Made by a program: the position numbers and the translations under genes
Part shown: in pieces, positions 1-16,599 of the stretch
Numbering within the stretch: position 1 is the first letter of the stretch
Layout of the letters: each line of letters starts with the position of its first letter
Notes under the pieces: model-generated
What the model was told of the DNA's origin: nothing
The model's input: only the letters and a program-made list of their open reading frames with translations
Database searches by the model: none
NCBI GenBank assembly: GCA_031367385.1
Contig: JANLPS010000143.1
Span: 1-16,599, forward strand
Origin: Archangium sp.
GTDB lineage: Bacteria > Myxococcota > Myxococcia > Myxococcales > Myxococcaceae
Direction: 5' to 3'
Length of the DNA stretch: 16,599 bases

Positions 1-726
1 CAATCTCAGCCGCGACCGCCGCCAACTTGTCATCGGTGCCCGAGAGCCGTGCCTTCGCCGCTCGAGCCGAGCGGCATCGAGCTCCTGCTGAAAGCCGGTG
101 CGCCAGGCTTTCAGCCGCCGCTGCAACGTTCGCGCAGACCAATTCAGGCACTCGGCCACGAACGCCACGTCAGCCTCGCGATAGTGCGTCGCCAGCACCT
201 CGCGCACGCGGGCCAGCTCAGGCGCGACGCCGTTGACTGATTCTCGAAGGCGCTCCCACTCGCGGTGAACGGCGGGCTCAACCTCGAGCCACCGCGCGGC
301 CTCGGTCGCATCGGCGAAGGTCTTCGAAGGGTAGGGCGGAGGCTGCAACGCAAAGAACCCCGCCACCACTGCCCCCGCCACGCCCGAGGGCCGCACGACC
401 GCCTCTCGCGCCGTAATCTCAACCTGCCGCGGCTCGACCTCTTTGAGAAACTCACGCATCAACACAAAGGCATCGCTGTCGACCCAAGTCAGACCGGTCA
501 GGTCCATGAAGGCGTGGTGTCGCACGGCCTGGGGGCGCATCTCGACGCGCAGCACCTCGATGAACCGTCGGGTCTGCTCCGCGTTCGGCCGCCCCCACAG
601 GTACCCGCCGTACAAAGAGTCGCTCTGGCACAGAGACAAGAAGCACTGGCCGCGCACGTAGAGGCCGGCCGGGTTGGCCGCATACTCAGCAAGCGACTCT
701 GCTTCTCGAAGCGCGGCGAAAGCCAT
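1..726 (-). CDS. AraC-family transcriptional regulator (3' end runs off the window; apparent 1-nt frameshift at ~55-62)
   Basis: Not in the ORF track because it is open at the window edge. Manual translation from ATG 726: MAFAALREAESLAEYAANPAGLYVRGQCF...LWGRP...ADVAFVAECLNWSARTLQRRLKAWRTGFQQELDAARLE, then in a shifted frame AKARLSGTDDKLAAVAAEI. Both halves match the AraC double helix-turn-helix pattern. Confidence 0.85.
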   Translation of the reverse strand, partial: MAFAALREAESLAEYAANPAGLYVRGQCFLSLCQSDSLYGGYLWGRPNAEQTRRFIEVLRVEMRPQAVRHHAFMDLTGLTWVDSDAFVLMREFLKEVEPRQVEITAREAVVRPSGVAGAVVAGFFALQPPPYPSKTFADATEAARWLEVEPAVHREWERLRESVNGVAPELARVREVLATHYREADVAFVAECLNWSARTLQRRLKAWRTGFQQELDAARLERRRHGSRAPMTSWRRSRLRL

Positions 727-838
727 GACCGCTGCGAAGCCTACGCCATCGCGCCAAACGGTTCAGAAATCGCGCCACCCCGCGACCGGGGGCAGGCGGG
801 CCTCGATACTCACAGCTCCTCACACCGTTGGAGTCACC

Positions 839-1522
839 ATGCGAGTCGCAGGTTGGTCAGGCATTCTCTTCGTCGTTCTCTCGGGCTTCTTGCTGCTGCT
901 CGCGCCGTTCTGGCCTCCGGTCGGCGCCAGCGCCGAGAGCATCGTCGCCTTCTATACCGCGCACCGCAGCGCCTTTCTCTTCGGCAACGCGCTGGCCATC
1001 GCCGCGGCGATACCGTCGTTCGTGCAGATCTCCGTACTGGCGATGCTGATCAAACGCGCCGAAGGGCCCGCGGGCTGGCTGTGGCTGGCGGTGGTCGCTG
1101 CCGCCCTCGTCGCTCACGGCGTCGGAGCGCTCGCGCTCATCGCCTACCAGGCCGTGCCGTTTCAACTGGGTGAGGGCCAGCTCGCCGTCGCAAAAGGCCT
1201 CTCTGACTTCGGCGGAGTCGCCTTCGCCGCGACCATCTTCGCGATGGGCGGCTTCGCTGGGTTCACCGCCTGGGCGATCAAAGCGACGAAGGTGCTCCCC
1301 GCGTGGGTCGGCAGCTTCGGCGGGGTCACCGCCGTGGTGTGCGCGGCGTGCGGCGGCATTGGGCTTTTGACGGCGTCAGAGCCCCTGCTGGCCGGCGGAG
1401 GCCTGGTCGAGGTTGGCGCGCTCGGGTTGTTCTGCGGCTGGTGCCTGGCCATCTCGGCCGTGTTTCTTCAGCGCAAGAACGCGAGCAGCTTCTCGTTCAC
1501 CACGGCCGGCGCGTCGGCGTGA
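839..1522 (+). CDS. Integral membrane protein, ~6 TM helices (DUF4386-like)
   Basis: ATG 839 preceded by GGAG (830-833), in frame with ORF 674..1522. Repeated hydrophobic helices, 'SAESIVAFYTAHR' loop and 'VLPAWVG' motif. Divergent from the AraC gene. Confidence 0.75.
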   Translation: MRVAGWSGILFVVLSGFLLLLAPFWPPVGASAESIVAFYTAHRSAFLFGNALAIAAAIPSFVQISVLAMLIKRAEGPAGWLWLAVVAAALVAHGVGALALIAYQAVPFQLGEGQLAVAKGLSDFGGVAFAATIFAMGGFAGFTAWAIKATKVLPAWVGSFGGVTAVVCAACGGIGLLTASEPLLAGGGLVEVGALGLFCGWCLAISAVFLQRKNASSFSFTTAGASA

Positions 1523-2340
1523 ACGAAGTGCCCGGCGTTCTCGATGCGCTCGATTCGAAGCTTCGGAGCGTACTTCTCGATGCCCGGCACCACGTCGTCG
1601 TACCCGAGCGCCTTGTCTTTCATGCCCCAGATCAGCAGCGTCTCGACGCTGATCGGCGTCAGGGTCGGGGGTTTGAACAACCCTGCGCGAATGCTGGTGC
1701 GGTACCAGTCGACCATCGCTTTGGCGGCTCCGGGGCGCTGAATGTCGTCTCGAAAGGGGCGCAGCTCGTCGACCGAAAAGTTGGTCTTGTCGATGGCCGA
1801 GCCGCGAATCATCGCTACCACGGCGCCGGCGTCATTTCGGGTCAGCACCCACTCCGGCACCGCGGGGAGCTGAAAGAAGAACATGTACCAGCTCTTGGCG
1901 AGCTGCCGCAGGTTGAGCCGCTTGACCATCACCTCGCGCATCACCGGCGTCGGCGGGCAGTTGAGCACTGCCAGCCGCTCGCAGAACTCTGAGCGCTCGG
2001 CCGCCAGGTGCCAGGCCGTCGCGCCGCCCCAGTCATGACCGACGATGCGCACCTTCTTCTCGCCACCGAATGACGAGATCAGGTGGCAGACATCACCGGC
2101 GATGGTGTCGAGGTCGAAGGGGCCGTTCTTGTCAGTCGCTCCGTAGCCGCGCAGGTCGGGGGCGACCACGCGAAACCCGGCGTCGGCGAGGGGCTTGATC
2201 TGGTGACGCCAGCTCCACCAGTTCTCGGGGAAGCCGTGCAGCAGCATCACCACCGGGCCCGTACCGGCGGTGACGTAGTGCATGCGGAGCGTGGGGAGGT
2301 CGATGAAGTGGTGCTCGACAGCAAGGTCGGCCGGAGTCAT
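1468..2340 (-). CDS. Alpha/beta-fold hydrolase, epoxide hydrolase type
   Basis: HGFP oxyanion motif, DLRGYG, nucleophile GHDWGG, cap tyrosines (SWYMFFFQ, DWYR), WGMKD acid and GHFVH catalytic His. Start placed at ATG 2340 (MTPADLAVEHHF). Confidence 0.92.
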   Translation of the reverse strand: MTPADLAVEHHFIDLPTLRMHYVTAGTGPVVMLLHGFPENWWSWRHQIKPLADAGFRVVAPDLRGYGATDKNGPFDLDTIAGDVCHLISSFGGEKKVRIVGHDWGGATAWHLAAERSEFCERLAVLNCPPTPVMREVMVKRLNLRQLAKSWYMFFFQLPAVPEWVLTRNDAGAVVAMIRGSAIDKTNFSVDELRPFRDDIQRPGAAKAMVDWYRTSIRAGLFKPPTLTPISVETLLIWGMKDKALGYDDVVPGIEKYAPKLRIERIENAGHFVHADAPAVVNEKLLAFLR

Positions 2341-2506
2341 GCCAGGTCTTCTAACCCCGGCGGCACCCGAAGAACCGTAAGACTCTGACGCAAAAGCCGT
2401 GATCCTCGCGTCGTGGTCACCGCATTGAATTCTCACTCCTTGAGACTCGCCCTCGGAGCCGTCTGCCGCGTGGTGCATGGCCCCACCCTTGCTGGTGGGC
2501 CGCGCC

Positions 2507-3022
2507 ATGAATGCGCTTCTCCTTCTTGTCGCCCTCTCGTTGCCGGCTCAAACCGAGCCATCTGCTGAACCCCCGGTGCACGTCGGTGTTTCGCTCGGCG
2601 TTGGGCATGACTGGGCCGGGCTCGGGGTGCGTGGCGAGGTCTCGTACAAATCACTCTCGGCGTCGGCGAGCGTTGGCACTCTGGTGTTTGGGCCGTCAAT
2701 CGACTTTGCGGTGGGCTTGCGCTGGTACCCGCTGGGCATGGTGCGGCACAGCCTGTTTCTCGGGCCGCATGCCTCGACGTATCTCTTCGCCTACCCGACG
2801 TTGCAGCCGGGGCTCTACGCGGTGGCCGTGACGGTCGGGTATCGCTTTCAGGCAGACCACTTTTTCTTCGAGGTGAGCGCGGGGCCAGCCGCGGCGTGGG
2901 TCGACGTCGGTACCGGCTCAGGGCCACGAGAGGGTCAGCCCCACTTTCAGTTCGGCGGCGGCGCGCTCGGGTCGTACTGGTACATTCCCGACGTGGGGCT
3001 GGCGGCAGGGTGGCGGTTTTGA
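2507..3022 (+). CDS. Small putative outer-membrane beta-barrel protein, paralog 1
   Basis: Hydrophobic N-terminus (MNALLLLVALSLPA), alternating beta-strand patterns (FAVGLRWY, AVTVGYRF) and C-terminal GLAAGWRF resembling a BAM beta-signal. Confidence 0.75.
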   Translation: MNALLLLVALSLPAQTEPSAEPPVHVGVSLGVGHDWAGLGVRGEVSYKSLSASASVGTLVFGPSIDFAVGLRWYPLGMVRHSLFLGPHASTYLFAYPTLQPGLYAVAVTVGYRFQADHFFFEVSAGPAAAWVDVGTGSGPREGQPHFQFGGGALGSYWYIPDVGLAAGWRF

Positions 3023-3528
3023 ACGGCCTGCTCCTCATCGCCGCGCTCTCGCTGCCGGCTCAAACCGAGCTCGCCTCTGAAGCGCCCTGGCAGGGCTCGC
3101 TCTCTCTGGGAGTCGGCCACGAGTGGGCAGCGTTCGGCGTACGCGGCGAGGTCTTGTACAAATCGTTCTCCGCGTCGGCCAGCATCGGCAGCTGGGGCCC
3201 CTTGGCGGTGCCATCACTCAACTTCGCGATCGGCGTTCGGTGGTACCCACTGGGCTTGGGGCGGCACAGCCTGTTCTTGGGCCCACATGCCTCGGCGTCA
3301 CTCTTCCCCGCGGAGCGGTTTCGGCCATTTCTGTACGCGGTGGCGGTGACGGCGGGGTACCGGTTTCAGCTCGAGCACGTCTTCTTCGAGGTGAGCGGGG
3401 GGCCGGCGGTGGCCTGGTTCGATGCCGGGTTCGGCGAGCGCCCCCGGTTCGAGTTCAGCCCCGGCGCGCTTGGGCAGGGGGGCTGGTACATCCCCGATGT
3501 GGGGTTGGCGGTGGGGTGGCGCTTCTAG
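3019..3528 (+). CDS. Small putative outer-membrane beta-barrel protein, paralog 2
   Basis: TTG start at 3019 overlaps the upstream TGA (TTGA). Colinear with paralog 1 from the first residue (LNGLLLIAALSLPAQTE ... WYIPDVGLAVGWRF). Confidence 0.75.
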   Translation: MNGLLLIAALSLPAQTELASEAPWQGSLSLGVGHEWAAFGVRGEVLYKSFSASASIGSWGPLAVPSLNFAIGVRWYPLGLGRHSLFLGPHASASLFPAERFRPFLYAVAVTAGYRFQLEHVFFEVSGGPAVAWFDAGFGERPRFEFSPGALGQGGWYIPDVGLAVGWRF

Positions 3529-3537
3529 GCGATCGGC

Positions 3538-4548
3538 CTAGGCAGTCGTCAGCGCCTGGGCGAGCACGCGCAACCCGAGCAGTCCAACGATTAATGACAA
3601 GAAGACGTAAAACGTTCGACGGTCTCCGGTGCTCGGTGGCGCTGACCAGAATCGCCGTACCAGCAGCCCCGCGCCCGCGAGCCCAGCCATCGGAGAGACC
3701 ACCAGTACGCCTCCCGCAAGGGCGACGACTCCGAGCGCCAACTGCTGCCGTGCGCTCAGGCACGCCGCGGCCCGGCTGCCATCGAGCTGCCAGACCGGGA
3801 GCAGGTTGAAGAGGTTGATTTCAGCGATGATCACCGCGGCGCCGCACAGCCACTGCTGGTGCAGCACTGCCCCGACCACCAGCACCAGCACGCCGGTCAC
3901 CGCGCCCCACAGTGGCCCCGAGAGCGCGACGTCGCCAATCGCTGCGGCGCTCTTGGGGTAATGCGAGCCACGAACGAACGCTCCCAGGCCGGGCACGAAC
4001 ATCGGCGACGAGACCGTGATGCCATAGCGTTGAAACGCGAACGTGTGCCCCATCTCGTGCACGTAGACGCTGCCCAGCACGACGAGGGCGAGGCCGATGC
4101 CGTTGGTGCTGTCGCTCCAGAGGGCGGCGCTGGCGAAAAAGGTGAGCAGGGTCGGCAACTTGAGCAACCCCACCAGCAGCAGCTTGCCCTTGCTGAGCAG
4201 CGCTACCAGCGGAGCGCCGAGCTTCCACGCGGCGAGCCCGAAGGCTCCCAGGCCCGCGACCCAGCGAGGGGCTTTGGCCGGGGCGCCCGGGGTACCGACG
4301 GTTCGGCCCTCGAGCGCGGCGATGCGTGCGCGCACGGTGGCGGCCTGGTTCGAGGCCGAGGGGAGCAGGGGCTCCATCTCACGCAGCTTGGCCAGGGCGT
4401 CGATCAGGGCACCGCTGGCCTCGAGGGTGTCAGCGCTGCGCACCAGCTCGGTGAGCCGGGCTTCGTGAAACAGCGCATGGCACTTCGGGCACGCGGCGAA
4501 GTGCTCTGGCGCGGTCGTGCCACAGCGGCGGCACGTCAACACGCTCAT
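3538..4548 (-). CDS. Site-2 protease (peptidase M50) with N-terminal zinc ribbon
   Basis: HEMGH zinc motif in a TM segment, VALSGP and FNLLPVWQLDG third-ligand motif. N-terminal CRRC...CPKC followed by a helical segment. Confidence 0.92.
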   Translation of the reverse strand: MSVLTCRRCGTTAPEHFAACPKCHALFHEARLTELVRSADTLEASGALIDALAKLREMEPLLPSASNQAATVRARIAALEGRTVGTPGAPAKAPRWVAGLGAFGLAAWKLGAPLVALLSKGKLLLVGLLKLPTLLTFFASAALWSDSTNGIGLALVVLGSVYVHEMGHTFAFQRYGITVSSPMFVPGLGAFVRGSHYPKSAAAIGDVALSGPLWGAVTGVLVLVVGAVLHQQWLCGAAVIIAEINLFNLLPVWQLDGSRAAACLSARQQLALGVVALAGGVLVVSPMAGLAGAGLLVRRFWSAPPSTGDRRTFYVFLSLIVGLLGLRVLAQALTTA

Positions 4549-5213
4549 GACGCGGGAGGCGCCTCGGCTTCGACGGCGGGCATCGGTACCGGGGCGGCTG
4601 CGCCGATCTCGAAGGGCCCTTCGACGACGATCTTGAGCGGAGCGGGTTCACGCCAGCCACGCCAGACTCCGAAGGCGAGAATGATGAGCCCCAGCGGGCC
4701 CATCGACCCTGAGAACGGCATCGCCAGCACGAGCACCGGAGCGATGAAGAGCCAGGCGATGAGCGGCAGGTGATCGGGCTCGTTGAGCGCCTCGGCGATC
4801 AGCGATGGCGCGTAGGCCATGGTGCACCAGATGTAGGTGTGCAGCGCGCCCATGACCTGGTAGCCGCGGCCGCCGAAGCCGCCCGAGCCACGTCGAACGC
4901 CACGGCCGACGAACCAACCGATGAAGATGGTGATGAGGGCGAACTCGATGTGCAGAAAGTAGATGACCAGCGCATAGCCCGCGGCCCCGAGCGCTCCCGC
5001 CGCCGAGCCGAAGAAAAACGCTTTAAGCATGCGCAGAAACGAACCCTCTTTGGGCGCGCCAGAGCTCAGAGACTGGGCGCAGGTGCCGCAGAGCACGGCG
5101 GGCCCGGCGGTCCAGTACTGGGCTCCGGTGGCGAGTGACTTCTGGCAAGCCGCGCACGCAGTGCTCTCGGGAGCGGGCTTCGACGCATCGAACGTGGCTT
5201 CGCTGAAGTCCAT
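4545..5213 (-). CDS. Membrane protein with N-terminal CxxC...CxxC zinc finger
   Basis: Start ATG 5213 (MDFSEATF), CAAC...CGTC, then 4-5 hydrophobic helices. Its stop overlaps the M50 start (ATGA at 4548-4545). Confidence 0.8.
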   Translation of the reverse strand: MDFSEATFDASKPAPESTACAACQKSLATGAQYWTAGPAVLCGTCAQSLSSGAPKEGSFLRMLKAFFFGSAAGALGAAGYALVIYFLHIEFALITIFIGWFVGRGVRRGSGGFGGRGYQVMGALHTYIWCTMAYAPSLIAEALNEPDHLPLIAWLFIAPVLVLAMPFSGSMGPLGLIILAFGVWRGWREPAPLKIVVEGPFEIGAAAPVPMPAVEAEAPPAS

Positions 5214-5310
5214 GTGTGGGCGCGCAGACAAGCAGCTCACGATTCGAACCGCAATCAACCCCAATCAACGGGTGATTCGAGCTCGGCACGCATGGCGTAG
5301 AGTGGCTGCA

Positions 5311-6021
5311 GTGTTTCGCTCGACCGCACTGATTCTTCTGCTGACGGCTTGTGTCGAAGGCCCGTCGAGCGGGTCACCCGATGCGGGGCACGTGCTCAGC
5401 GCCGCCTTGCGCGCCTGTGCCGGCCGACCCGCCAGCGCCGCCACGATTTCGGCCTTCGTGAATCACATCAACGCGCTGCCAATGCCAGTCACGGTGCCGT
5501 GCGCCGTCGCCAGCCTGAAACGGCCCCTCGACCTCGTCGCCACCAACAGCATCAGCAGCGCTCAGCCCGCCGTTGGCTCTCGCAACCCACGCATCTTCTT
5601 GCTCTCTGTGGGCCTGGCGCTGTCGGTCGTACCCGAGGGCACGGGCGCCGAATTGATCGAGCTCGGAGAATGGGTCACCGCGATGCGCACCGAGAAGGGG
5701 GAGCTCTCGTTTCCCGTCACCGAGCCAGTGCCTGTCGAGCTGCCACGCAGCCGAGTGCTCTTCACGAGCACCTCGACGACCTGTGGCCTGTGCCACAACG
5801 CCGAGCAACTCGATTCGCCAGACGCCGGGCGCTTCGTCTCAGACGCATTTCGGCCTCGCGACGAGACCCTGGTGCCGCTCTCGCTGCTGATGGCCGAGCA
5901 CGAGGCCTGCGCTTCGACACCTGACGCTGGAGCGCGCTGCGAGCTGTACCACGCGCTCTTCGACTTCGGGCTCGTGCGGGCCTCAGCCTTCGATTCGCGC
6001 GTGAACGTGTTCGGTCACTGA
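5311..6021 (+). CDS. Putative lipoprotein with one CxxCH (possible monoheme c-type cytochrome)
   Basis: GTG 5311 gives (M)FRSTALILLLTA-C with a lipobox. Contains CGLCH, further Cys residues and three PDAG motifs. Confidence 0.7.
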   Translation: MFRSTALILLLTACVEGPSSGSPDAGHVLSAALRACAGRPASAATISAFVNHINALPMPVTVPCAVASLKRPLDLVATNSISSAQPAVGSRNPRIFLLSVGLALSVVPEGTGAELIELGEWVTAMRTEKGELSFPVTEPVPVELPRSRVLFTSTSTTCGLCHNAEQLDSPDAGRFVSDAFRPRDETLVPLSLLMAEHEACASTPDAGARCELYHALFDFGLVRASAFDSRVNVFGH

Positions 6022-7259
6022 ACGCAGAGCCGCCCGGCCTTGAACACCCAGCGCACGTCATTCATCGCGAACCGGTACGGCAGCTGCCGGTAGCTCGCCG
6101 ACCCGAACACCGCGACATCGGCCGGGCCTCCGACGAACAGCCTCCCCAGCCGGTCATCGCGCAGGGCCAGACCGCCCACCCGCGTGAACCCCAGGTAGGC
6201 CTCGGCGGGGGTCAACCCGTTCTCGACGCACGCCAGCCCCAGCGCCAGTGCCACGTTCTGCGACATCGACGAGCCGGGGTTGCAGTTCGTACACAGCGCG
6301 ACCAGCACCCCCGCATCGCGCAGCGCACGGCCCGGCGCGTAGGGCTTGACCCGCGCGAACAGCGTCGACGTCGGGGCCAACACGGCCACGACCCGGGCCT
6401 TGGCCAACGCCTGAACACCTGCGGTTGAAATCTGCTCGAGGTGGTCAGCCGTCACCGCCTCGAGCTCGGCCGCCAGCTCGGCACCGCCATTCGCGGTCAT
6501 TTGGTCGACGTGCAGCCGCAGCCCGAGCCCCAATGCCCGCGCCTTGACCGCCAACCGCCGCGCCTCGTCATGGGTGAACGCCGATTGCTCGACGAACGCG
6601 TCACAGCAACTGGCCAGCTTCTGGGCGGCCACCCGAGGCAGCATCTCTTCGAGCACGAGCTCGACGTAGGTCTCTCTGCGCTCTTTGTACTCGGGAGGCA
6701 GTGCATGCAGCCCCAGAAACGTCGAGTGCAGGCTCACTGGCTGCTCCCCGGCCAGGCGTCGCACCGCGCGCAGCATTCTCAGCTCGGTCTCGACCTCGAG
6801 GCCGTAGCCGCTCTTCACTTCAGCGGTGGTGACGCCGTGCTCGAGCAAGCGCCTCAGGCGGGGCAGCGCACTCGAGACCAGCGCGTCTTCGGTCGCCTCA
6901 CGGGTCGATTTCACCGTGCGGGCGATGCCACCACCGGCGGCGGCGATCTCCAGGTACGACGTGCCCTGACAGCGCTGCTCGAACTCGTCGGAGCGCTCGC
7001 CCGCGAACACCACGTGCGTGTGGCAGTCGACGAACCCGGGCCCGGCGAAGCCCCCTTCGGCATCGAGCACCTGAGTCGCCTCGGTGACCAACCCCGCGGG
7101 CAGCTCGTGCTCGGGGCCAAGCCACGCGATGCGCCCACCCACCATGCCCACTGCGCCGTGGGCGATCGGGGCGAGGGCCTTTTCAGCTTTGCCGCGCAGG
7201 TCGCCGTCACAGGTCACCACCTCGGAGGTGTTGCGAATCAGCACCTCGAGGGGGCCCAT
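6015..7259 (-). CDS. hutI: Imidazolonepropionase
   Basis: PGFVDCHTH, GERSDEF, SYLEIAAAGGGI, GVTTAEVKSGYGL, LHVDQ, ADHLE and NPGSS motifs of HutI amidohydrolases. Confidence 0.93.
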   Translation of the reverse strand: MGPLEVLIRNTSEVVTCDGDLRGKAEKALAPIAHGAVGMVGGRIAWLGPEHELPAGLVTEATQVLDAEGGFAGPGFVDCHTHVVFAGERSDEFEQRCQGTSYLEIAAAGGGIARTVKSTREATEDALVSSALPRLRRLLEHGVTTAEVKSGYGLEVETELRMLRAVRRLAGEQPVSLHSTFLGLHALPPEYKERRETYVELVLEEMLPRVAAQKLASCCDAFVEQSAFTHDEARRLAVKARALGLGLRLHVDQMTANGGAELAAELEAVTADHLEQISTAGVQALAKARVVAVLAPTSTLFARVKPYAPGRALRDAGVLVALCTNCNPGSSMSQNVALALGLACVENGLTPAEAYLGFTRVGGLALRDDRLGRLFVGGPADVAVFGSASYRQLPYRFAMNDVRWVFKAGRLCVQ

Positions 7260-9343
7260 CAGTGCGCTCGTCGTTTCTTCTTGTGCTTGGCAGCGCCCAT
7301 CGGCCGGGGCACGGCGTGCACGCCGCCGTCAGTCTTGTTGCGCTCGTACACCGGGGGCCCGGCGTCATCTTCCTCGTCTTCGTATTCGTCGTCGTCGGTA
7401 CCGCCGTCGAGGCCGGGGTTGAAGCCGTCGATCACCGGGGGGAGCGCCGGTTCGAGCACCCGCTCGCCCGCATCGACGAGCATCGTCACCGGCGTCATCG
7501 GTACCCGAATGATCTGGCTGCGGGTGCGAATGAAGATCAGCAGGCTCAACCCGAAGATCGCCAACAACGCGACGATGATGAACAGGGCCTGTGGCACCAG
7601 GGTGCGGGCCCGCCGCGGCTGCGAGACATCGACCTCACCCGTCAGGGGGTCGACCGATTCGGTCTGCTCCGGCTCGTCGGGCTCGCGCAGCAGCAGGCTC
7701 TCGCCAGTGAGCACGCTCCCCGAGATCAACGACTCACCGGTCACTTCACCCAACGCTCGAGGCGCTCGCACCGGCGGCGGAGCAGCGAACAAATCGAATG
7801 GCGGCGAGGGAGGCGAGGCCTGAGGTGGCGCGCTCGGCCGGGGCGCGTCGGCCGGGCGGTCGGGTCGGGTCTCCTCGTCACGTGGGGGCGCAAGGCTCTG
7901 TGGCTGGGCGGCGTCGATGGTGGGCCGCAGCGAGACGGGCACGATGCCCACGCCGGTTGACTCCCGTTCGCTGGGGCTGAACACGGTCTCCGGGCTGGGG
8001 TGGTCGACCGTGGTCGTCGAGAGGTCGACGTTGCCGTCGTTGTTGGTGCTGGGCGACAGGTTGACCGTGGCCTCCGGTGCGCCGACCACGGTGCGCTCTA
8101 CGGAGTCGAAATCGTTGTGCGTGCTGGGTGGGGGCAGGGCGCCGATGTTCGTTTTTTCTTCTTCGCTGTCGATGATCACCTTCGGCCCGATGATCACCGT
8201 GCTCATGGGTATCGACGCGCCCTGCGGCGAGGTCGCGATGGTGGTGATCTCCAGCGGCCCAGGCGGCTTCAAAGGCGTGATCGCGGGCGCAATCAGAACG
8301 AGCGCTGGCTTCGAGCCAGAGACCGGCGGCTTCGGGCCCGGGGTGGCGACCGGCCGGTACGCGGCGGCCGGCTTGACGGGAGTGCCCGACCCCTTGACCG
8401 GCGCAGCCGGGGCCACCGTCGGGGCAGGGCTGGCCACGCTGGGGGCGATGCTCGGCGGCGCCAGCTCCTTGGGCAGCATGCCGGTGCTCCTGGCCACGAA
8501 TGGCGGAGCGATCTGGGTCGACGGCTCTTCTTCGTCGGCCACTGAACGTGAGTACGGCACGCTTGGTTTTTCAGCCGGCGGCGTCGCGGTCGCCTTGATC
8601 AAGGCGCTGATTCGGTCTCGAAACAGCCGTTTGAGGGTCGCTGACACGCCCGCGGTGTCGAGCACCGAGCCTCCCAGGGCGCCTCCGAGCTCATTGGCCA
8701 GCTGGGCCACGCTCGCCTGTCGCTGGTCGAGCGCGGGAGACATCGCGGTAAGCACTACGTCGTCGAGGGCCGGGCTGACGTCGCCGCGGCCCTTCGAGGG
8801 CGGGTCGAGCAACGCCGTCGTCGCATAGTGGCCCGTGAAGCCAGTCAGCACCGAGTGAATGACGGCGCCCAGCGTGAATACGTCGCGCTGCGCCCCGGGG
8901 AGCACGCTGCGGCTGCCAAACCGCCCGGAGTTTCGAGGCGCTCCGTAGTCGAGCACCCGGGTCACCCCATCGAACCCCACCAGAATCGACCCGTCGGAGA
9001 TGCCGTTGTGCCAGTGCACCCCCGTCACCGCGCCGAGGGCCGCAGCGGCGTCGATGATCACCCGCCCCAACAGGTCGAGCGGCGCCGGGCGCGCCTGCTG
9101 GCGAAACGCGGCCACCAGCTCACGCAGCGTGACCCCCGCCACGTAGTCGTAGAGCGCCACCGGGGCTCCCTCGAAGGTGTCGAGCTCGATCAGCGAGAGC
9201 ACCGCCGGGTGCCGGGGCCCGACGAACGTGGTCACCCCTGTCTCGAGTGCGCGCAAGACGATGTGCTTGGGGCCCTGACGCGCGAGCCGGGTTCGCGACA
9301 GAGCGACCTCGGGCGGCAGCGTTGAGAGGGCCTCGAAGGTCAC
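7259..9343 (-). CDS. Membrane-anchored Hanks-type Ser/Thr pseudokinase with long Pro/Thr-rich linker
   Basis: Kinase remnants: HPAVLSL, YDYVAGVTLREL, HNGISDGSILVGFDGVTRVLDYG, RDVFTLGAVIHSVLTG, ALDDVVLTAMSPALDQR. Then a low-complexity linker, one TM helix (ALFIIVALLAIFGLSLLIFI), and an acidic then basic tail. GTG start uncertain. Confidence 0.8.
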   Translation of the reverse strand: MTFEALSTLPPEVALSRTRLARQGPKHIVLRALETGVTTFVGPRHPAVLSLIELDTFEGAPVALYDYVAGVTLRELVAAFRQQARPAPLDLLGRVIIDAAAALGAVTGVHWHNGISDGSILVGFDGVTRVLDYGAPRNSGRFGSRSVLPGAQRDVFTLGAVIHSVLTGFTGHYATTALLDPPSKGRGDVSPALDDVVLTAMSPALDQRQASVAQLANELGGALGGSVLDTAGVSATLKRLFRDRISALIKATATPPAEKPSVPYSRSVADEEEPSTQIAPPFVARSTGMLPKELAPPSIAPSVASPAPTVAPAAPVKGSGTPVKPAAAYRPVATPGPKPPVSGSKPALVLIAPAITPLKPPGPLEITTIATSPQGASIPMSTVIIGPKVIIDSEEEKTNIGALPPPSTHNDFDSVERTVVGAPEATVNLSPSTNNDGNVDLSTTTVDHPSPETVFSPSERESTGVGIVPVSLRPTIDAAQPQSLAPPRDEETRPDRPADAPRPSAPPQASPPSPPFDLFAAPPPVRAPRALGEVTGESLISGSVLTGESLLLREPDEPEQTESVDPLTGEVDVSQPRRARTLVPQALFIIVALLAIFGLSLLIFIRTRSQIIRVPMTPVTMLVDAGERVLEPALPPVIDGFNPGLDGGTDDDEYEDEEDDAGPPVYERNKTDGGVHAVPRPMGAAKHKKKRRAH

Positions 9344-9436
9344 TGGGCACGGAGCCTACAACGCGAGGCGTCTTCATCAACGAAATCAACCGTGGCGTTT
9401 GACGCGACTTTCGGTTCGGGGGACACCCCTTGCGGC

Positions 9437-10081
9437 ATGAGAACTGTTTTGGCGGGAGCGGTGGTGTCGATGCTGGCGCTGGTCGGCTGCGGCGCTGGGC
9501 CTCAAACCACCGCGATCATCATGCAGGCGTCGGTGCAGTCGACCTGCGCGGGCGACGGCGGGTGCAGGCCCCCGATGGTCAGCGTCGGGCACTGCGGTTC
9601 GGGCGTTCGAATCGCGAAGGGCACCCATGGTGCCGCCCAGGCGGCCACGAAATTGGCACCCGGTGAGGTCGGCGCGATCGTGGTCGTGCAGCACCCCGCG
9701 GGAGACAAGCCCTCCAACTCGGGCGGTGGCAGCAGTGACCGGGGCTGGTTGCTCGCCAAGGGTGAGCGGGCGCGGGTCGAGGCGCTCCACCGGCCAGAGA
9801 TGGTGTTGTACACCGTCGATGAAGCGGGGGCGGTGGGCGAGGTGAGCACGGCGCTGGTGGCTTCAGACGACCAGGGCTCGATGCAGTTCGAGTACAGCTC
9901 GGCCGGCCTCTCGGTGACCGAGACCCATCACCTGCTCGAGATCGCCCAGCGGCCGCTCGAGCTGACCTCACCCGACGACATTTCGAACGGCTGTTGCGCG
10001 AGCGTGCCAGGGCCCGAGCTGGTGGCGCTTTTCGCGGTGATGCTCGCGGTGTTCAGACTGCGGGGGCGCCGCGCTTCTTGA
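9437..10081 (+). CDS. Putative lipoprotein with C-terminal MYXO-CTERM-like sorting signal
   Basis: MRTVLAGAVVSMLALVG-C lipobox. C-terminal GCCAS + linker + hydrophobic helix + RLRGRR. Confidence 0.7.
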   Translation: MRTVLAGAVVSMLALVGCGAGPQTTAIIMQASVQSTCAGDGGCRPPMVSVGHCGSGVRIAKGTHGAAQAATKLAPGEVGAIVVVQHPAGDKPSNSGGGSSDRGWLLAKGERARVEALHRPEMVLYTVDEAGAVGEVSTALVASDDQGSMQFEYSSAGLSVTETHHLLEIAQRPLELTSPDDISNGCCASVPGPELVALFAVMLAVFRLRGRRAS

Positions 10082-10793
10082 CCACGCCCGACTTGTCGAG
10101 CGTGAACTGGTCTCCCAGCATGGCTTCGATCTTCTTTTGAAACCCCTGGGTGCCGAAGCCGGTCTCTGACAGGGCCTGCACACACGCCATCTGCAACCGC
10201 TTGGCGGTCTCGGTGCCAGTCGCCAGCTGCAGCAACGGCTCGCGCATCGGCTCGTACTTGAGGCTGGCCAAGGTCTTGAGCGCCGCCAGCTTCACGTCGT
10301 CGCTCATGTCATTGAGAAACGGCAGCACCGCGGGGCCGACCCGCTCGTCGTGCCGCCCTTCGAGCCAGTGGAGCAGCACCTGTTTCTTCTCGGGGTCTCG
10401 GGTGTATTCGGCGCCCAGGTGCTTCAGCTCGTCGGTGACGATGCCGATCACTTCGGGGGTCTCGAGCACCTCGTCGAGCAGCTTGATCGCCCAGCTCGAC
10501 GCCGCGTCGTTCTTCTTCAAAAACTCGACGACCGGTGGCACGGCCTCTTTTTCGAACGAGGCGATGGTCTGAAAGACGTTCTCTTTCTCGTCGGCGTCGG
10601 TGGTTTGCGGGTCGACCACGAAGGTGAACCGCAGCATCAGCACCGGTATCACTTCGGCCGACTTGAGCTTGGCCAGGTCGGCGATCGCGCCCTGCCGAGC
10701 CGAGGCGTCGCCATACTTCTGGGTGATCTTGGCTTTGGCCTTCTGCGCCTTTTCAGCCGGAGTACCGCCACCAAAGAAATCGAACAAGCCCAT
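10053..10793 (-). CDS. HEAT/ARM-repeat protein
   Basis: Repeated helical units (ARQGAIADLAKL; VLPFLNDMSDDVKLAALKTLASL; RLQMACVQALSE). N-terminal MGLFDFFGGG. Lies 18 nt downstream of the DnaJ gene. Confidence 0.85.
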   Translation of the reverse strand: MGLFDFFGGGTPAEKAQKAKAKITQKYGDASARQGAIADLAKLKSAEVIPVLMLRFTFVVDPQTTDADEKENVFQTIASFEKEAVPPVVEFLKKNDAASSWAIKLLDEVLETPEVIGIVTDELKHLGAEYTRDPEKKQVLLHWLEGRHDERVGPAVLPFLNDMSDDVKLAALKTLASLKYEPMREPLLQLATGTETAKRLQMACVQALSETGFGTQGFQKKIEAMLGDQFTLDKSGVVKKRGAPAV

Positions 10794-10811
10794 GCGGCGC
10801 CTCTATCAGAA

Positions 10812-11762
10812 CTACAGTTTGAGGTCGGCGCGAACGTCGCCGGCGTAGGCCGCCTCGAGCGTCTCGACGGCCTGCTTCTGCTCGGCAGCGTGCACCTCGG
10901 GCAGCTTGACCTGCACTACCAGGTACAAGTCGCCCCGGTGGCCGCCCTTCAAGTCGGGCACGCCCTGGCCCTTGAGCCGAAGCTTGGTGCCTGACTGGGT
11001 GCCGGCCTTGATCTTGACCTGGCCGCCACCAGAGAACGTGGGCACCGAGATCTCGGCGCCGAGCGCGGCCTCTTTGATGGTCACGGGCAAATCGAGATAG
11101 AGATCTTTTTCTTCGCGCCGAATCAGGGGGTGCTCGGCGACCTGGAGGTCGATGAAGAGGTCTCCTCGCGGGCCTCCGCGCTCACCCGGCTCGCCCTGAC
11201 CCGTGAGTCGAACCCGCGACCCGGTCTCGACTCCGGTGGGTATCTTCACCGTCAGGCGCTGGCCGTTGACGTTCAAGATGCGCTCTCCGCCGGTGACCGC
11301 GTCTTGCAGGGTGACGGTCATCTCAGTGGCGAGGTCGGCGCCGGGCATCGGGCCGCGCTTGCGGCTGGCTCCGCGGCGGCCTCCGCCGAACATCTCGCCC
11401 AAGATCGACTCGAAGTCGACGTTGCCGCCCTGGCCACCGACATTGAAGTCGAAGCCCCCGGGCATGCCGCCACCGCCGCCGCGCGCCCCCTGCTCTCGAT
11501 ACGCCCGAAATTGTTCGGCTTTCTTCTCGTCCCACCCGAGCTTGGCGGCTTCGTCACCGAACTCGTCGTACATGCGGCGCTTCTTCTGGTCGCCCAAGAC
11601 CTCGAAGGCCTCGGTGATCGACTTGAACTCTTCTTCGGCGCCCTTCTTGTGGGGGTTGACGTCGGGGTGGCTCTTTTTGGCGAGCGCCCGATAGGCCTTC
11701 TTGATCTCGTCAGCCGATGCTTGCCGAGATACCCCGAGTCGCTGGTAGTAGTCCTTCACCAT
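10812..11762 (-). CDS. DnaJ class B / CbpA-like co-chaperone
   Basis: KDYYQRLGV...HPD J-domain, G/F-rich region, no CxxCxGxG zinc finger, DnaJ C-terminal domain ([26 protein letters not shown]). Start ATG 11762 (or GTG 11759). Confidence 0.95.
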
Positions 11763-12429
11763 GGTCGGGCGGCACTCTAACCAGCACTTCTCTCGGTGCC
11801 AGTGGCTCTTTGCATTGTGCGCCTCGATTGTCGTGTCTGCCGAGGGGCCGGTGCTCGACCGGTCGGTGGCGGCGGTCGATGGCCGAGTCATTACCCAATC
11901 GCAGCTCGACTTCGAGACCCGGGTGCTGCTGGTGAGCGCAGGGGGCGCCGAGGCGGCCTTCGCGCAGCTGGGCCTCGATGATTTGAAGAAGGGCCTCGAC
12001 CTGATCATCGATCACCGGGTGACCACGCTCGAGGCCGACAAGCTCGACGCGTATCAGCTCGAGGCGGGTGAGAATGAGCGCCTGGTGGCCCGGTTTCGCG
12101 ACGCCATCGGCGGCGATGCCCAGCTGCGGCGATTTCTCGACGAACACGAGGCCGAGCTGAACGACGTGGCGCAGGTGCTGCGGCGCTCGGTGCGGTCGGG
12201 GCGGGTGCTCGATGGGCGGCTGCGGCTCAAGGCCCAGGTCTCTGAGGCAGATGCGCGGCGCTACCAGGCCGAGCACGCCGAGGTGAAGACGTTGAGCGTG
12301 CAGCAGGTGCGTGAGCTGCTCTTCGCCGGGCGCTTCAAAGAGATGGTGCGCCAAGAGCTGAAGGCCGCGCGCAAGTCAGTCGACGTGCGGCTGCTGGGGC
12401 CATTTGCCGCGCAGCCGGTGGCTCCATGA
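11761..12429 (+). CDS. Exported protein with SurA N-terminal-like domain, no PPIase domain
   Basis: Signal-like [13 protein letters not shown], then [19 protein letters not shown] resembling the SurA N-terminus, and C-terminal [14 protein letters not shown]. Start uncertain. Confidence 0.7.
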
Positions 12430-12896
12430 GAGAGCTGGCTCCGAGCTTTCGCATTCGGCGCATGACCCTGGCCGATTTGCCGCAGGTGATGGCGATCGAG
12501 AACCAGGCGTTTTCGAACCCCTGGTCGCTCGACATGGTGAAGAAAGAGCTCACCCAAGATTGGTCGACGGTGCTGCTGGCCGAGGCGGTGGGCCCCTCGG
12601 GCTGGGAGCTGCGCGGCTTCGCCATTTTCTGGCTCGTCGCGAATGAAGTGCACGTGCTCAACGTGGCGACCGACACCACCTACCGCCGGCAGGGCATCGG
12701 GCGGCAGGTGATGGAGGCGGTGTTGGCGCACGGGCGGCAACAGAAGTGCTTCATGGCCACGCTCGAGGTGCGGCGCAGCAACACGGCGGCGATTGCGATG
12801 TACACCGCGCTCGGGTTTCGCGCGGTCGGCATGCGGCCGAACTACTACACCGATGATCGCGAAGACGCGGTGATCATGATCATGGACTTGATCTAG
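12426..12896 (+). CDS. rimI: Ribosomal protein S18-alanine N-acetyltransferase
   Basis: IRRMTLADLPQVMAIE..FSNPWS, EVHVLNVA, RRQGIG acetyl-CoA motif, LEVRRSN..AIAMY..LGF, RPNYY, EDAVIM. ATGA overlap with the upstream gene. Confidence 0.93.
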   Translation: MRELAPSFRIRRMTLADLPQVMAIENQAFSNPWSLDMVKKELTQDWSTVLLAEAVGPSGWELRGFAIFWLVANEVHVLNVATDTTYRRQGIGRQVMEAVLAHGRQQKCFMATLEVRRSNTAAIAMYTALGFRAVGMRPNYYTDDREDAVIMIMDLI

Positions 12897-12898
12897 CG

Positions 12899-13372
12899 AT
12901 GCGCGAGCCGACCCAGTCGATCTGCTTTTGGCACCCTGAGAGGCCCGCGGTGCAGGCATGTGATCGCTGCGGCATGGGCTACCTGCTGGCGTTCATCGCC
13001 ACCGCGGTGCTGTTCTGCCGATGGTTTCACCTGGCCGTACGGCACGTGAAGGCGCACGGCCTCTCGGTGTCGGTGACCCCGGCCGCGGCAGTGGGGAGCT
13101 GGTTCATACCCATTCGCAACCTGGTGAAACCGTTCGCGATCACCCGAGAACTGATGGCTGCGACGAGGGCAAACCAGAGCGCGGTAGGGCCCTGGCAGGC
13201 CTCGTGGATCATCGGCAACATCGTCTCGAACCTGAGTACCCGGGTCGAAAGCTCGGCGGTTTCGGCGGCTTCGACGGTTTTGACCTTCGTTTCGGCGATC
13301 ACGTGCTACCAGGTGATCAAGGCCCTGACCTTTGCCGCGACCAGGCCCGTGCAGACAGAATCCGTTGCTTGA
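12899..13372 (+). CDS. DUF4328-like membrane protein with partial N-terminal zinc finger
   Basis: AVGSWFIPIRNLVKPFAITREL resembles the DUF4328 core (WFIPxxNLxxP). N-terminal CFWHPERPAVQACDRCG. Alternative start at Met 12974. Confidence 0.65.
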   Translation: MREPTQSICFWHPERPAVQACDRCGMGYLLAFIATAVLFCRWFHLAVRHVKAHGLSVSVTPAAAVGSWFIPIRNLVKPFAITRELMAATRANQSAVGPWQASWIIGNIVSNLSTRVESSAVSAASTVLTFVSAITCYQVIKALTFAATRPVQTESVA

Positions 13373-13397
13373 CACTCCGCGTTCAGCGATGTACGCG
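13369..13397 (+). promoter_or_regulatory. Putative sigma70-type promoter of the str operon
   Basis: Perfect TTGACA at 13369-13374, a 17-nt spacer and a weak -10 TACGCG at 13392-13397, about 40 nt upstream of rpsL. Confidence 0.6.
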
Positions 13398-13438
13398 GGC
13401 CCCCCATTTTCTGATCCCGATTCATTTGAAGGACGTTC

Positions 13439-13810
13439 ATGCCGACCATTAACCAGCTCATCCGCAAGGGCCGCGAGCAACTGCGGTACAAGTCGAAGAG
13501 CCCCGCGCTGAAATCGAACCCCCAGAAGCGTGGCGTGTGCACTCGCGTGTACACCACGACTCCGAAGAAGCCGAACTCGGCGCTTCGCAAGGTCGCCCGC
13601 GTTCGCTTGACCAACGGTATTGAAGTGACGTCGTACATCCCCGGCGTCGGCCACAACCTGCAAGAGCACTCCGTGGTGCTGATTCGTGGCGGCCGCGTGA
13701 AGGACTTGCCGGGCGTTCGTTACCACATCATTCGCGGCACGCTCGACTCGGTCGGCGTTCAGGGCCGTAAGCAGAGCCGTTCGAAGTACGGCGCCAAGCG
13801 TCCTCAATAA
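13439..13810 (+). CDS. rpsL: 30S ribosomal protein S12
   Basis: [60 protein letters not shown] upstream. Confidence 0.99.
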
Positions 13811-13831
13811 TCTTTTCGGAGAATCACCACT

Positions 13832-14302
13832 ATGCCGCGCCGTCGCGTACCCAATAAACGAAAGATCAACCCCGACCCGAAGTTTCAAGATCGGTTGGTT
13901 GCGAAGTTCACGAACAACCTGATGCGCAAGGGCAAGATGGCCGTTGCCGAGCAGATCACCTACGGCGCCTTCAGCATCATCGAAGAGCGCGCGAAAGAAG
14001 AGCCGCTCAAGGTGTTCAAGCGAGCCCTCGACAACGTCAAGCCCGTGCTTGAGGTGAAGAGCCGCCGCGTCGGTGGTGCGACCTACCAGGTGCCCGTCGA
14101 AGTTCGTCAAGACCGTCGCGTCGCCCTCGGCATGCGGTGGATCATCTCGTACGGCAAGGCCCGCGGCGAGAAGACGATGATGGAGAAGCTGGCTGGCGAG
14201 ATCATGGACGCCGCCAACAACCGCGGCAACGCGGTCAAGAAGAAGGAAGACACCCACAAGATGGCCGAGGCCAACAAGGCCTTCTCGCATTACCGCTGGT
14301 AA
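13832..14302 (+). CDS. rpsG: 30S ribosomal protein S7
   Basis: [44 protein letters not shown] upstream. Confidence 0.99.
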
Positions 14303-14326
14303 TTCGCGGTCGTTGTGGTGTGAACG

Positions 14327-14360
14327 GCGGGGCTCCGGAGACGGGGCCCCGTTTTTCGTT
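14327..14360 (+). terminator. Intrinsic terminator-like hairpin between rpsG and fusA
   Basis: GCGGGGCTCCG-GAGA-CGGGGCCCCGT: 11-bp stem (two G-U pairs), GNRA loop, running into TTTTTCGTT. Confidence 0.7.
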
Positions 14361-14381
14361 GGTTCTGAAAGGCTGTACGTC

Positions 14382-16475
14382 ATGTCTCGCGAATACCCGC
14401 TCGAGCGCTACCGCAACATCGGCATCATGGCGCACATCGACGCCGGCAAGACGACCACCACCGAGCGCATACTTTTTTACACCGGCGCCATTCACAAGAT
14501 GGGCGAGGTGCACGAAGGCAACACGACGACCGACTGGATGCCCCAGGAGCGCGAGCGCGGCATCACCATCACCTCGGCGGCCATCTCGGCGTTTTGGACG
14601 CGCCGGGAGCAGAAGTACCGTGTCAACATCATCGATACGCCGGGCCACGTCGACTTCACCATCGAGGTCGAGCGGAGCTTGCGCGTGCTCGACGGCGCGG
14701 TCGCGGTGTTCGACGGCAAGAACGGCGTCGAGCCTCAGTCAGAGACGGTGTGGCGCCAGGCCGACAAGCACAAGGTGCCGCGCATCTGCTTCATCAACAA
14801 GATGGACGCGACGGGTGCTGACTTCGAGATGTCGGTGCAGTCGATTCGCGAGCGGCTGGGCGCGAACCCGTGCGTGGTGCAGCTGCCGTTGGGCAGCGAA
14901 GACACGCTTCGCGGAGTCATCGACATCGTTCGAATGAAGGCCCTGGTGTTCATCGACGCCGAAAAGGGCAGCAAATACGAGGTTGAAGCGATACCCGCCG
15001 AGCTGGCTGAGGCTGCGGCGAAGGCCAGGTCTCGCTTGCTCGAGCAGGTCGCCGAGGTCGATGAGTCGCTGATGGAGAAGTACCTCGACAACGAGGGCCG
15101 CGACATCACCGAAGACGAGATTCGCGGCGCGATTCGCAAGGGCTGTATCGCGATGAAGATCTTCCCCGTGTTTTGTGGGTCGGCTTACAAGCACAAGGGC
15201 GTTCAGCCGCTGCTCGATGGCATCGTCGATTATCTGCCGTCGCCGACCGAGGTACCGCCGATTCACGGCAAAGACACCAAAGGCAACGACGTGGTGCGCG
15301 AGACGAATGACGACGCTCCGTTCGCGGCGCTGGCTTTCAAGATCATGACCGAGGCGTTCGGCACGTTGACCTTCATTCGCGTGTACTCGGGTCGCCTCGA
15401 GAGCGGCATGGCGGTGTGGAATACCGCGAAGAAGAAGCGGGAGCGGGTCGGTCGGCTGGTGCAGATGCGGGCCGACAAGCGCGATGAAATCGAAGAGTGC
15501 CGCGCGGGTGACATCTGCGCCATCGTGGGCTTGAAGACGGTGACGACGGGCGACACCTTGTGCGTCGAGTCGGCCCAGGTGCTGCTCGAGAAAATCGACT
15601 TTCCCGAGCCGGTGATTCAGTTGGCGCTCGAGGCGCGGTCAGCTGAAGATCAAGACAAGCTGCTCGAGTCGCTGGGCAAGTTGGCGATTGAAGACCCTTC
15701 GTTCAGCGTGAAGGCCGACGCCGAGACCGGGCAGACGATCATCGCAGGCATGGGTGAATTGCACCTCGAGATCATCGTCGACCGGCTCAAGCGAGAGCAC
15801 AAAGTCGAGGCCAAAGTCGGCAAGCCGCAGGTGGCGTACCGCGAGACGGTCGCGAAGCCCGCTGAGGGTGAGTGCAAGTACGTCAAGGCGACGGCGGCGA
15901 ACTCGCAGTATGGCCATGTGAAGTTGCGGGTGGCTCCGAATGAACAGGGCAAGGGGTTCGTGTTCAAGAACCTGCTCAAGCCCGAGGCGGTGCCCAAGGA
16001 GTTTCACGCGGCCATCGAGAGCGGCGTGACCAGCGCGCTCAGCCGGGGCGTCATCGCTGGGTACCCGATCATCGACATCAAGGTCGACGTGTACGATGGC
16101 AGCTTCAGCCCGACCGACTCAGACGAGGTCTCGTTTCAGATCGCGTCGTCGACGGCGTTCACCGATGCGGTCAAGGCGGCTGAGCCGGTGCTGCTCGAGC
16201 CGGTGATGGATGTCGAGGTTACGACTCCGGCCGATTACATGGGCAGCGTGGTGGGCGACATCAATGCCCGGCGCGGCAACATCAAGGGCATGAACCAACG
16301 CGGCGTGTTGCAGGTGATTGATGCCGAGGTGCCGCTCGAGCGCATGTTCGGGTACGTCGACAGCTTGCGATCAATCTCGGCTGGCCGAGCGAACTACTCG
16401 ATGCAGTTCGGCAAGTACGCGCCGATTCCTCCCAATGTGTTGGCGCCGTTGCTGAAGCGCATTCGCGGATACTGA
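14382..16475 (+). CDS. fusA: Elongation factor G (str-operon copy, divergent domain IV)
   Basis: Start ATG 14382 ([25 protein letters not shown]). [37 protein letters not shown] and LLEPVM motifs. Confidence 0.97.
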
Positions 16476-16482
16476 GCCCAGG

Positions 16483-16599
16483 CTATTGATTCGACAAGTC
16501 GGCCCGTCGCTTCAACTGCACCCTCAGCCGCAACGGTGTGAGTCGTTGGAGCTCTTCTGCGAGGGCTGCGCCGTCGGGTTGAGCCCGCACGGCCGCGAC
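16483..16599 (-). CDS. Probable 3' end of a convergent gene of unknown function
   Basis: Open minus-strand frame from the window edge (VAAVRAQPDGAALAEELQRLTPLRLRVQLKRRADLSNQ) ending in TAG at 16485-16483, 7 nt from the fusA stop. Too short to be sure. Confidence 0.4.
   Translation of the reverse strand, partial: VAAVRAQPDGAALAEELQRLTPLRLRVQLKRRADLSNQ

Follow-up and report, generated by a model that had tools for sequence, protein, structure and literature searches.

The fusA gene that follows rpsL and rpsG in Archangium sp. is, as judged from its sequence, an EF-G I orthologue by descent that is atypical by motif, and on the same grounds a second EF-G encoded elsewhere in the genome is classified as an spdEFG1/mtEFG1-type EF-G. 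We consider it probable that the two proteins divide the work of EF-G between them: the fusA product would be a recycling-biased factor that splits post-termination ribosomes together with RRF, while the paralogue would translocate. A translocase/recycler split as such is already known: it has been established in Borrelia and in mitochondria, and it has been proposed for the str copy of P. aeruginosa (PMC3832671). The novelty lies in how canonical EF-G I slides toward a recycling role beside spdEFG1: recently, by degrees and more than once.

The domain IV tip of the rpsG-linked fusA

The window, that is, the whole stretch of DNA that was analysed, comprises positions 1-16,599 of the forward strand of contig JANLPS010000143.1 from Archangium sp. 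(GCA_031367385.1; 7.97 Mb in 562 contigs, 98.1% complete, 65% GC). The features on which the analysis rests are the following:

13439..13810, + strand: rpsL (uS12), TIGR00981 227.5 bits, cut-off 113
13832..14302, + strand: rpsG (uS7), TIGR01029 216.9 bits, cut-off 136
14326..14353, + strand: terminator-like hairpin with U run in the rpsG-fusA spacer, 12-bp stem
14382..16475, + strand: fusA, EF-G I orthologue, 697 aa, five domains (TIGR00484 1007.7 bits; Pfam; motifs; tree)
15876..15920, + strand: domain IV loop I, aa 499-513, with Q507A, G509A, G510A and G512S
15981..15986, + strand: third tip loop, Pro-Glu replacing Gly-Gly (E. coli 541-542), from the alignment
16095..16136, + strand: domain IV loop II, aa 572-585, with H583S, D584P, V585T and S588D

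The str unit at the end of the window consists of rpsL-rpsG-fusA only (13439-16475), so the str-operon setting given in the first-pass annotation holds for these three genes and not for tuf, the sole copy of which lies on contig C33 and not behind fusA. The genes on C33:3-6502, named by eye from their translations, run in the order tuf, then secE-nusG-rplK-rplA-rplJ-rplL-rpoB. No tuf stands behind fusA in the congener G001, and in the sister genus g12 (locus L038) there is no rpsG upstream of fusA. The window gene is like E. coli fusA in its place after rpsL-rpsG, its score above the TIGR00484 cut-off, its five domains, its G1-G5 GTPase motifs, which a motif reading found complete in agreement with the earlier claim that they are intact, and its position in the tree. 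It is unlike E. coli fusA in that Q507, G509-G510, G512, G542 and H583 are replaced and that its unit lacks tuf.

When the window protein was aligned to the product of E. coli fusA, whose numbering is used here for the tip residues, Q507 corresponded to A503, G509/G510 to A505/A506, G512 to S508 and H583 to S576, the last being encoded by AGC at 16107-16109. Degenerate loops I and II, with a serine codon in place of the conserved histidine, had been described at these same sites, and the alignment bears this out; the change from Gly-Gly to Pro-Glu in the third tip loop had been missed. Five loop I-II tip positions and the third-loop Gly-Gly are thereby altered jointly. Neither loop I nor loop II contains an indel, D586, S587 and E589 are retained in loop II, and Q513 and Y514 are retained as well. 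Domain III carries P421A and K422R at family-conserved sites, and a single-sequence AlphaFold model of domains III-V had a pLDDT of 37.9, too low for use.

Assembly error was rejected as the cause of the tip changes, because the tip of the congener G001 (87% identical) resembles that of the window copy while differing in some of its letters (KVTTANSQY / DGSFNPTDS) and because DNA contigs from two studies agree: those of runs X1, X5 and X6 span the loops with 2, 0 and 2 differences over 508-659 nt, run X1 being possibly the source sample and the X5 piece beginning within loop I. An antibiotic-driven loss of the tip was also rejected, since intact and degenerate rows do not differ at the argyrin-site position, matched by eye to S417 of P. 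aeruginosa, where both kinds have D or Q. The hairpin between rpsG and fusA is not significant on its own (five terminator-like sites in the region versus 2.9±1.8 in shuffles; spacer z -1.79). It may dampen transcription of fusA, perhaps family-wide, since many members carry similar hairpins; as a signature of degenerate-tip copies it was rejected, because one also occurs in genera with an intact tip, g48 and g42 among them. As for expression of the window, no RNA run contained the stretch (shares of 0.06-0.07), and run X14 held short diverged pieces only.

We placed the window protein by means of two trees from which the loop I-II columns were removed, a FastTree of 214 rows and an IQ-TREE of 40 rows under LG+G4; their rows lacked planctomycete and mitochondrial EF-G2, and for mtEF-G2 the comparison was confined to phmmer scores. 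In both trees the protein nested inside the canonical EF-G I of its own family, among intact relatives. Its location after rpsL-rpsG and its grouping are thus those of EF-G I, and what is missing is the conserved domain IV tip (QxGG, H583). With regard to EFG II, the protein fell below the cut-offs of NF009377, NF009379 and NF058620 and was far from the EFG II-like outgroup.

A second EF-G and the pattern of tip loss in the family

Exactly two EF-Gs scored above the TIGR00484 cut-off in the 98.1%-complete source genome. The second (C435:5588-7723) is 42% identical to the window copy, has no ribosomal genes nearby and keeps both loops intact (KKQTGGSGQF, with QTGG, and DGQSHDVDSS, with HDVDS), and the expectation of the first-pass annotation that a copy with intact loops would be found elsewhere was thereby confirmed. 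It carries a three-residue insertion in switch I, reading GKDEVG and in its relatives GKDGVG in the alignment; a switch-I KDG insertion is given as the defining feature of spdEFG1 in PMC3150367. Furthermore, its best PDB match was human mtEF-G1 (752 bits versus 689 for the best bacterial EF-G), it formed a clade with Borreliella EF-G1 with a support of 100, and its C-terminal tail, of 28 residues, is longer than that of the window copy (19) and that of E. coli (18). The source genome has one RRF gene (frr, contig C410). By eye, a transposase-like ORF lies just downstream of the spdEFG1 gene at L001:8015-9361. A third EF-G type, which forms its own clade and has loops reading QxGGPGQF / DGxTHxxDS, occurs in several family genomes (L148-L152) and is absent from the source genome.

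Codon adaptation was ranked among 3036 long ORFs against a reference set of nine ribosomal and elongation genes, tuf being left out of its own reference. The C435 paralogue stood at the 99.9th percentile, tuf at the 99.8th, frr at the 95.2th and the window fusA at the 84.8th. These ranks reflect expression only roughly, because the background ORFs were chosen by length and GC pattern without a gene caller and because two of the nine reference genes rank low when left out (rplJ 18th, rplK 69th). Across the family, the effective codon number was lower in the spdEFG1 paralogue than in the rpsG-type copy in 28/28 pairs, codon bias being an indirect stand-in for expression. Codon bias was rejected as a divider of intact from degenerate relatives, the ranges of which overlap (0.1-7.6 vs 0.1-6.1).

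The window fusA is under purifying selection. Compared to G001, dN/dS (Nei-Gojobori) was 0.10 for the whole gene, 0.015 for domain II and 0.022 for domain III, and for the 34 loop codons it was 0.056 with dS saturated. Between the two congeners, dS was 0.81 for the window fusA pair versus 0.48 for the paralogue pair, and identity in domain IV was 79% for the window gene versus 95% for the paralogue. We then took 39 genus representatives with an intact tip and called a site conserved if 90% or more of them keep it. Departures at such sites amounted to 8/44 in domain IV versus 9/311 elsewhere (Fisher p=3e-4), a contrast that is inflated because the intact set was itself defined by three of those positions (four residues), although the third-loop Gly-Gly played no part in that definition; 0/54 conserved sites were changed in domain II and 4/173 in the G-domain. 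The selection pattern and the codon bias are consistent with a translocase/recycler split.

To follow the tip through the family, each paralogue was used as a query against 160 genomes of the family, a subset of a larger group. From these searches we read 95 orthologues of the window gene from 46 genera; they were selected as the best hits together with at least one per genus and are not a random sample. The tip was kept in 72 of the 95, while 23, from seven genera, were without Q507, the GG pair or H583; all three were lost in five rows, and S587 was retained in 23/23. The third-loop Gly-Gly was present in 65/72 intact rows and 42/42 spdEFG1 rows and in at most 1/23 tip-degenerate rows. On a tree that took in 93 of the 95 rows and left out the loop columns, parsimony gave seven changes in tip state and about six lineages with different replacements. 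The genus of the window joined genus g12 (97% local support in a 14-row set), all rows of which keep Q, GG and H. The tip loss in the window fusA is probably recent, and the split was probably reached independently of the known ones.

A match to spdEFG1 was found in 154/161 family genomes, a tally that includes the unpublished genome G059, and nearly all of the family genomes searched also yielded an EF-G I-type match. Q, GG and H were kept in 42/42 spdEFG1 rows. The host genome of every one of the 23 tip-degenerate family rows has an spdEFG1 match, and of 20 genomes for which no intact spdEFG1 was found, spread over the family, the order and the phylum, 19 keep the EF-G I tip, an association that rests on few independent cases. 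Since 72/95 tips are intact despite near-universal spdEFG1, the paralogue permits the loss and does not force it. The one exception among the 20 is G131 (99% complete, 380 contigs), which has a degenerate tip and spdEFG1 only as a frameshifted 3' remnant; here the degenerate EF-G is split across two contig ends and the remnant of about 90 codons lies mid-contig (L347, L360). Because both genes that flank the spdEFG1 locus in congeners are also missing from this assembly, an assembly gap is suggested, although unproven. In another genome (L348, G120:C11:45300-48200) spdEFG1 is frameshifted and the rpsG-type copy intact, the break being either a real pseudogene or a sequencing error. Degenerate-tip rpsG-linked EF-Gs were also seen at L274, L275, L278, L280, L284 and L285, in genomes labelled Desulfobulbaceae, Bdellovibrionota and Fibrobacterota that also have spdEFG1; these six rows fell outside the spirochaete EF-G2 clade.

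A proposed division of labour and its alternatives

Loops I and II reach into the decoding centre during translocation (PMC4666400). As reported in that study of E. coli EF-G, deletion of loop I leaves recycling intact, H583K blocks translocation and S588P and E589A impair it; among single loop II mutants only S588P impairs recycling, and loop II deletions abolish it. In Borrelia, EF-G1 elongates only and EF-G2 recycles only, and mtEF-G1 does not recycle (PMC9067457, PMC3832671); the longer C-terminus of mtEF-G1 (EF-G1mt) clashes with RRF, and EF-G2mt and Borrelia EF-G2 are each without one loop I glycine (PMC8203779). The arrangement in Archangium is like that of Borrelia burgdorferi EF-G1/EF-G2 and human EF-G1mt/EF-G2mt as described in PMC8203779, PMC9067457 and PMC4342817, in which an spdEFG1-type partner likewise has an intact tip, the switch-I insertion and a long tail and the recycler likewise lacks loop I glycines and H583 while keeping its GTPase motifs. 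Unlike the Borrelia and mitochondrial EF-G2, the window copy stands outside their clade, is less remodelled (55% identity to E. coli EF-G) and keeps D586, S587, E589 and the C-terminal helix. A further parallel is EF-G1A of P. aeruginosa, which is likewise encoded in the str operon, was reported to be weak in poly(Phe) synthesis and is proposed to be a recycler, with EF-G1B encoded elsewhere translocating (PMC3832671); there, however, both proteins are EFG I and 84% identical, whereas the Archangium partner is an spdEFG1 at 42% identity and tip motifs have been lost.

On these grounds we propose that the C435 spdEFG1-type paralogue would serve as the abundant translocase and that the window copy, the original canonical EF-G I, would have been relieved of translocation. 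The tip residues that would wedge into the decoding centre (Q507, G509-G510, H583 and the third-loop Gly-Gly) could then be lost, while GTP hydrolysis, domains II and III, the length of loop II, D586/S587/E589 and a C-terminal helix of normal length would be kept. The window copy would bind post-termination ribosomes, hydrolyse GTP and drive the single RRF to split them, and we would expect it to translocate poorly and to split ribosomes in an RRF-dependent manner, and the paralogue not to recycle. Our own observations here are the sequences, the paralogue, the tree position, the selection pattern and the codon bias, the roles of the tip residues being those of the published work. The window copy may hence be EF-G2-like in function, without being EF-G2 by descent.

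An unlikely alternative, though the one we take most seriously, is that the window copy has remained bifunctional, recycling and also serving as a slower and more frameshift-prone backup translocase, with a tip that is relaxed and not dead. E. coli EF-G with a single domain IV mutation still carries out multi-round translocation, in most cases at a rate reduced 3-10-fold and with -1 frameshifts more frequent (PMC7749637), the loops of the window copy are free of indels and keep Q513, Y514, D586, S587 and E589, the dN/dS of the loop codons is low where dS is saturated, and G131 has no assembled intact spdEFG1. However, in the window copy five loop I-II positions and the third-loop Gly-Gly are altered together, decay at these positions has occurred in about six lineages, with replacements that differ, and it is the entire spdEFG1 locus that is missing from the G131 assembly.

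Less probable still is that the window copy has taken on another job on the ribosome, such as the clearance of stalled or hibernating ribosomes or a role in stress, with the paralogue both translocating and recycling. D584P, V585T and S588D sit in the loop that E. coli EF-G needs for recycling (PMC4666400), which may count against a recycler, and the domain III changes P421A/K422R affect family-conserved sites; moreover, that a myxobacterial spdEFG1 would be unable to recycle is assumed by analogy. Against this, the members of the paralogue's clade that have been tested, Borrelia EF-G1 and mtEF-G1, do not recycle (PMC9067457, PMC3832671), the C435 paralogue bears the long C-terminal tail, and the EF-G I-type copy is carried by nearly all family genomes searched. 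A redundant fusA decaying to a pseudogene is very improbable and was rejected: its codon bias is weaker, its dS exceeds that of the paralogue pair, and tuf has been lost downstream and, in the sister genus, rpsG upstream, but the frame is open in both congeners, dN/dS is 0.10 and conserved sites in domain II and the G-domain are almost all kept.

The chance that the window protein is a true member of the spdEFG2/mtEFG2 clade, inherited or transferred into the rpsG slot, is close to nil: it does co-occur with spdEFG1, has lost H583 and has loop I glycines altered as in Borrelia EF-G2 and EF-G2mt (PMC8203779), but AU tests under LG+G4 rejected grouping with four spirochaete EF-G2 rows (p 2.4e-10) and with seven rows of spirochaete and Desulfobacterota-type spdEFG2 (p 7.8e-9), identity is 75-78% to intact EF-G I of neighbouring genera versus 40-50% to spdEFG2-type rows, and the best bacterial EF-G in the PDB scores 839 bits versus 523 for mtEF-G2. 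The membership of the EF-G2 family that the first-pass annotation implied thus does not hold, and the C-terminal helix is also kept, with 19 residues past the reference column versus 4-6 in 22/22 spdEFG2-type rows, a short C-terminus being a trait of spdEFG2 in our own alignment and not a published definition. In these comparisons the second Borreliella copy was treated as EF-G2 for two reasons: the gene set given for B. burgdorferi comprises only spdEFG1 and spdEFG2 (PMC4342817), and 2/3 rows of this copy show the Gly-to-Ala change of PMC8203779.

Implications and other features of the window

The combination of EFG and spdEFG1 matches the set catalogued for M. xanthus, Stigmatella, Sorangium and Bdellovibrio (Atkinson 2015, PMC4342817), and delta-proteobacterial copies have been described as ambiguous between EFG I and spdEFG2 (Margus 2011, PMC3150367). 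The accessible parts of these two papers hold no analysis of myxobacterial tip loops or of repeated recent loss, and the open-access literature held nothing on a tip-degenerate myxobacterial EF-G; Atkinson and Baldauf 2011, which defines spdEFG1/2, may cover it.

The wider idea, that a recycling-only EF-G is a recurrent end state of rpsG-linked EF-G I once spdEFG1 is present and that this family shows the transition under way, is in our judgement evenly poised between right and wrong. If true, spdEFG1 would already be the main translocase family-wide, as its stronger codon bias in 28/28 pairs would have it, and therefore the textbook fusA of myxobacteria with intact tips would be mainly a recycler. 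The tip would have decayed independently in about six lineages, stepwise from one residue to a rewritten loop, and the degenerate rpsG-linked copies labelled Bdellovibrio, Fibrobacter and Desulfobulbaceae would follow the same pattern. Comparison of the window gene with its intact g12 counterparts (75-78% identical) would define the smallest set of changes by which translocation is lost and recycling left untouched. The known recyclers are so old and so extensively remodelled that the decisive changes in them are obscured. Here the split is young and there are intact relatives that are nearly identical, and therefore natural variants can reveal tip residues needed for translocation only. The value of the case lies mainly in this natural mutagenesis series, a neat extension for specialists and not a surprise. 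It also means that a fusA annotated beside rpsG may not be a working translocase in this family, with a bearing on marker-gene use and on EF-G-targeting antibiotics.

Elsewhere in the window, rimI (TIGR01575, above cut-off) and a DUF4328 gene lie upstream of rpsL at 12426-13372, and a rimI-like gene stands before rpsL in G001 too. For the final stretch, 16478-16599, possible explanations are a repeat, variation between strains and a contig end joined wrongly: contigs of X1 and X6 match the window up to 16477 and then diverge, with differences at 16543-16559, and a part of the tail shows 75% similarity to C81:69-169. On the minus strand are an alpha/beta hydrolase gene (1468-2508), hutI (6015-7259, above cut-off) and a gene for a DnaJ/CbpA-like protein (10812-12008). 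Eight other ORFs in the window, including a Pro-rich one of 694 aa (7259-9343, minus strand), had no NCBIfam match. Two similar tandem ORFs on the plus strand (2477-3022 and 2896-3528) have the look of small outer-membrane beta-barrels with a C-terminal GWRF.
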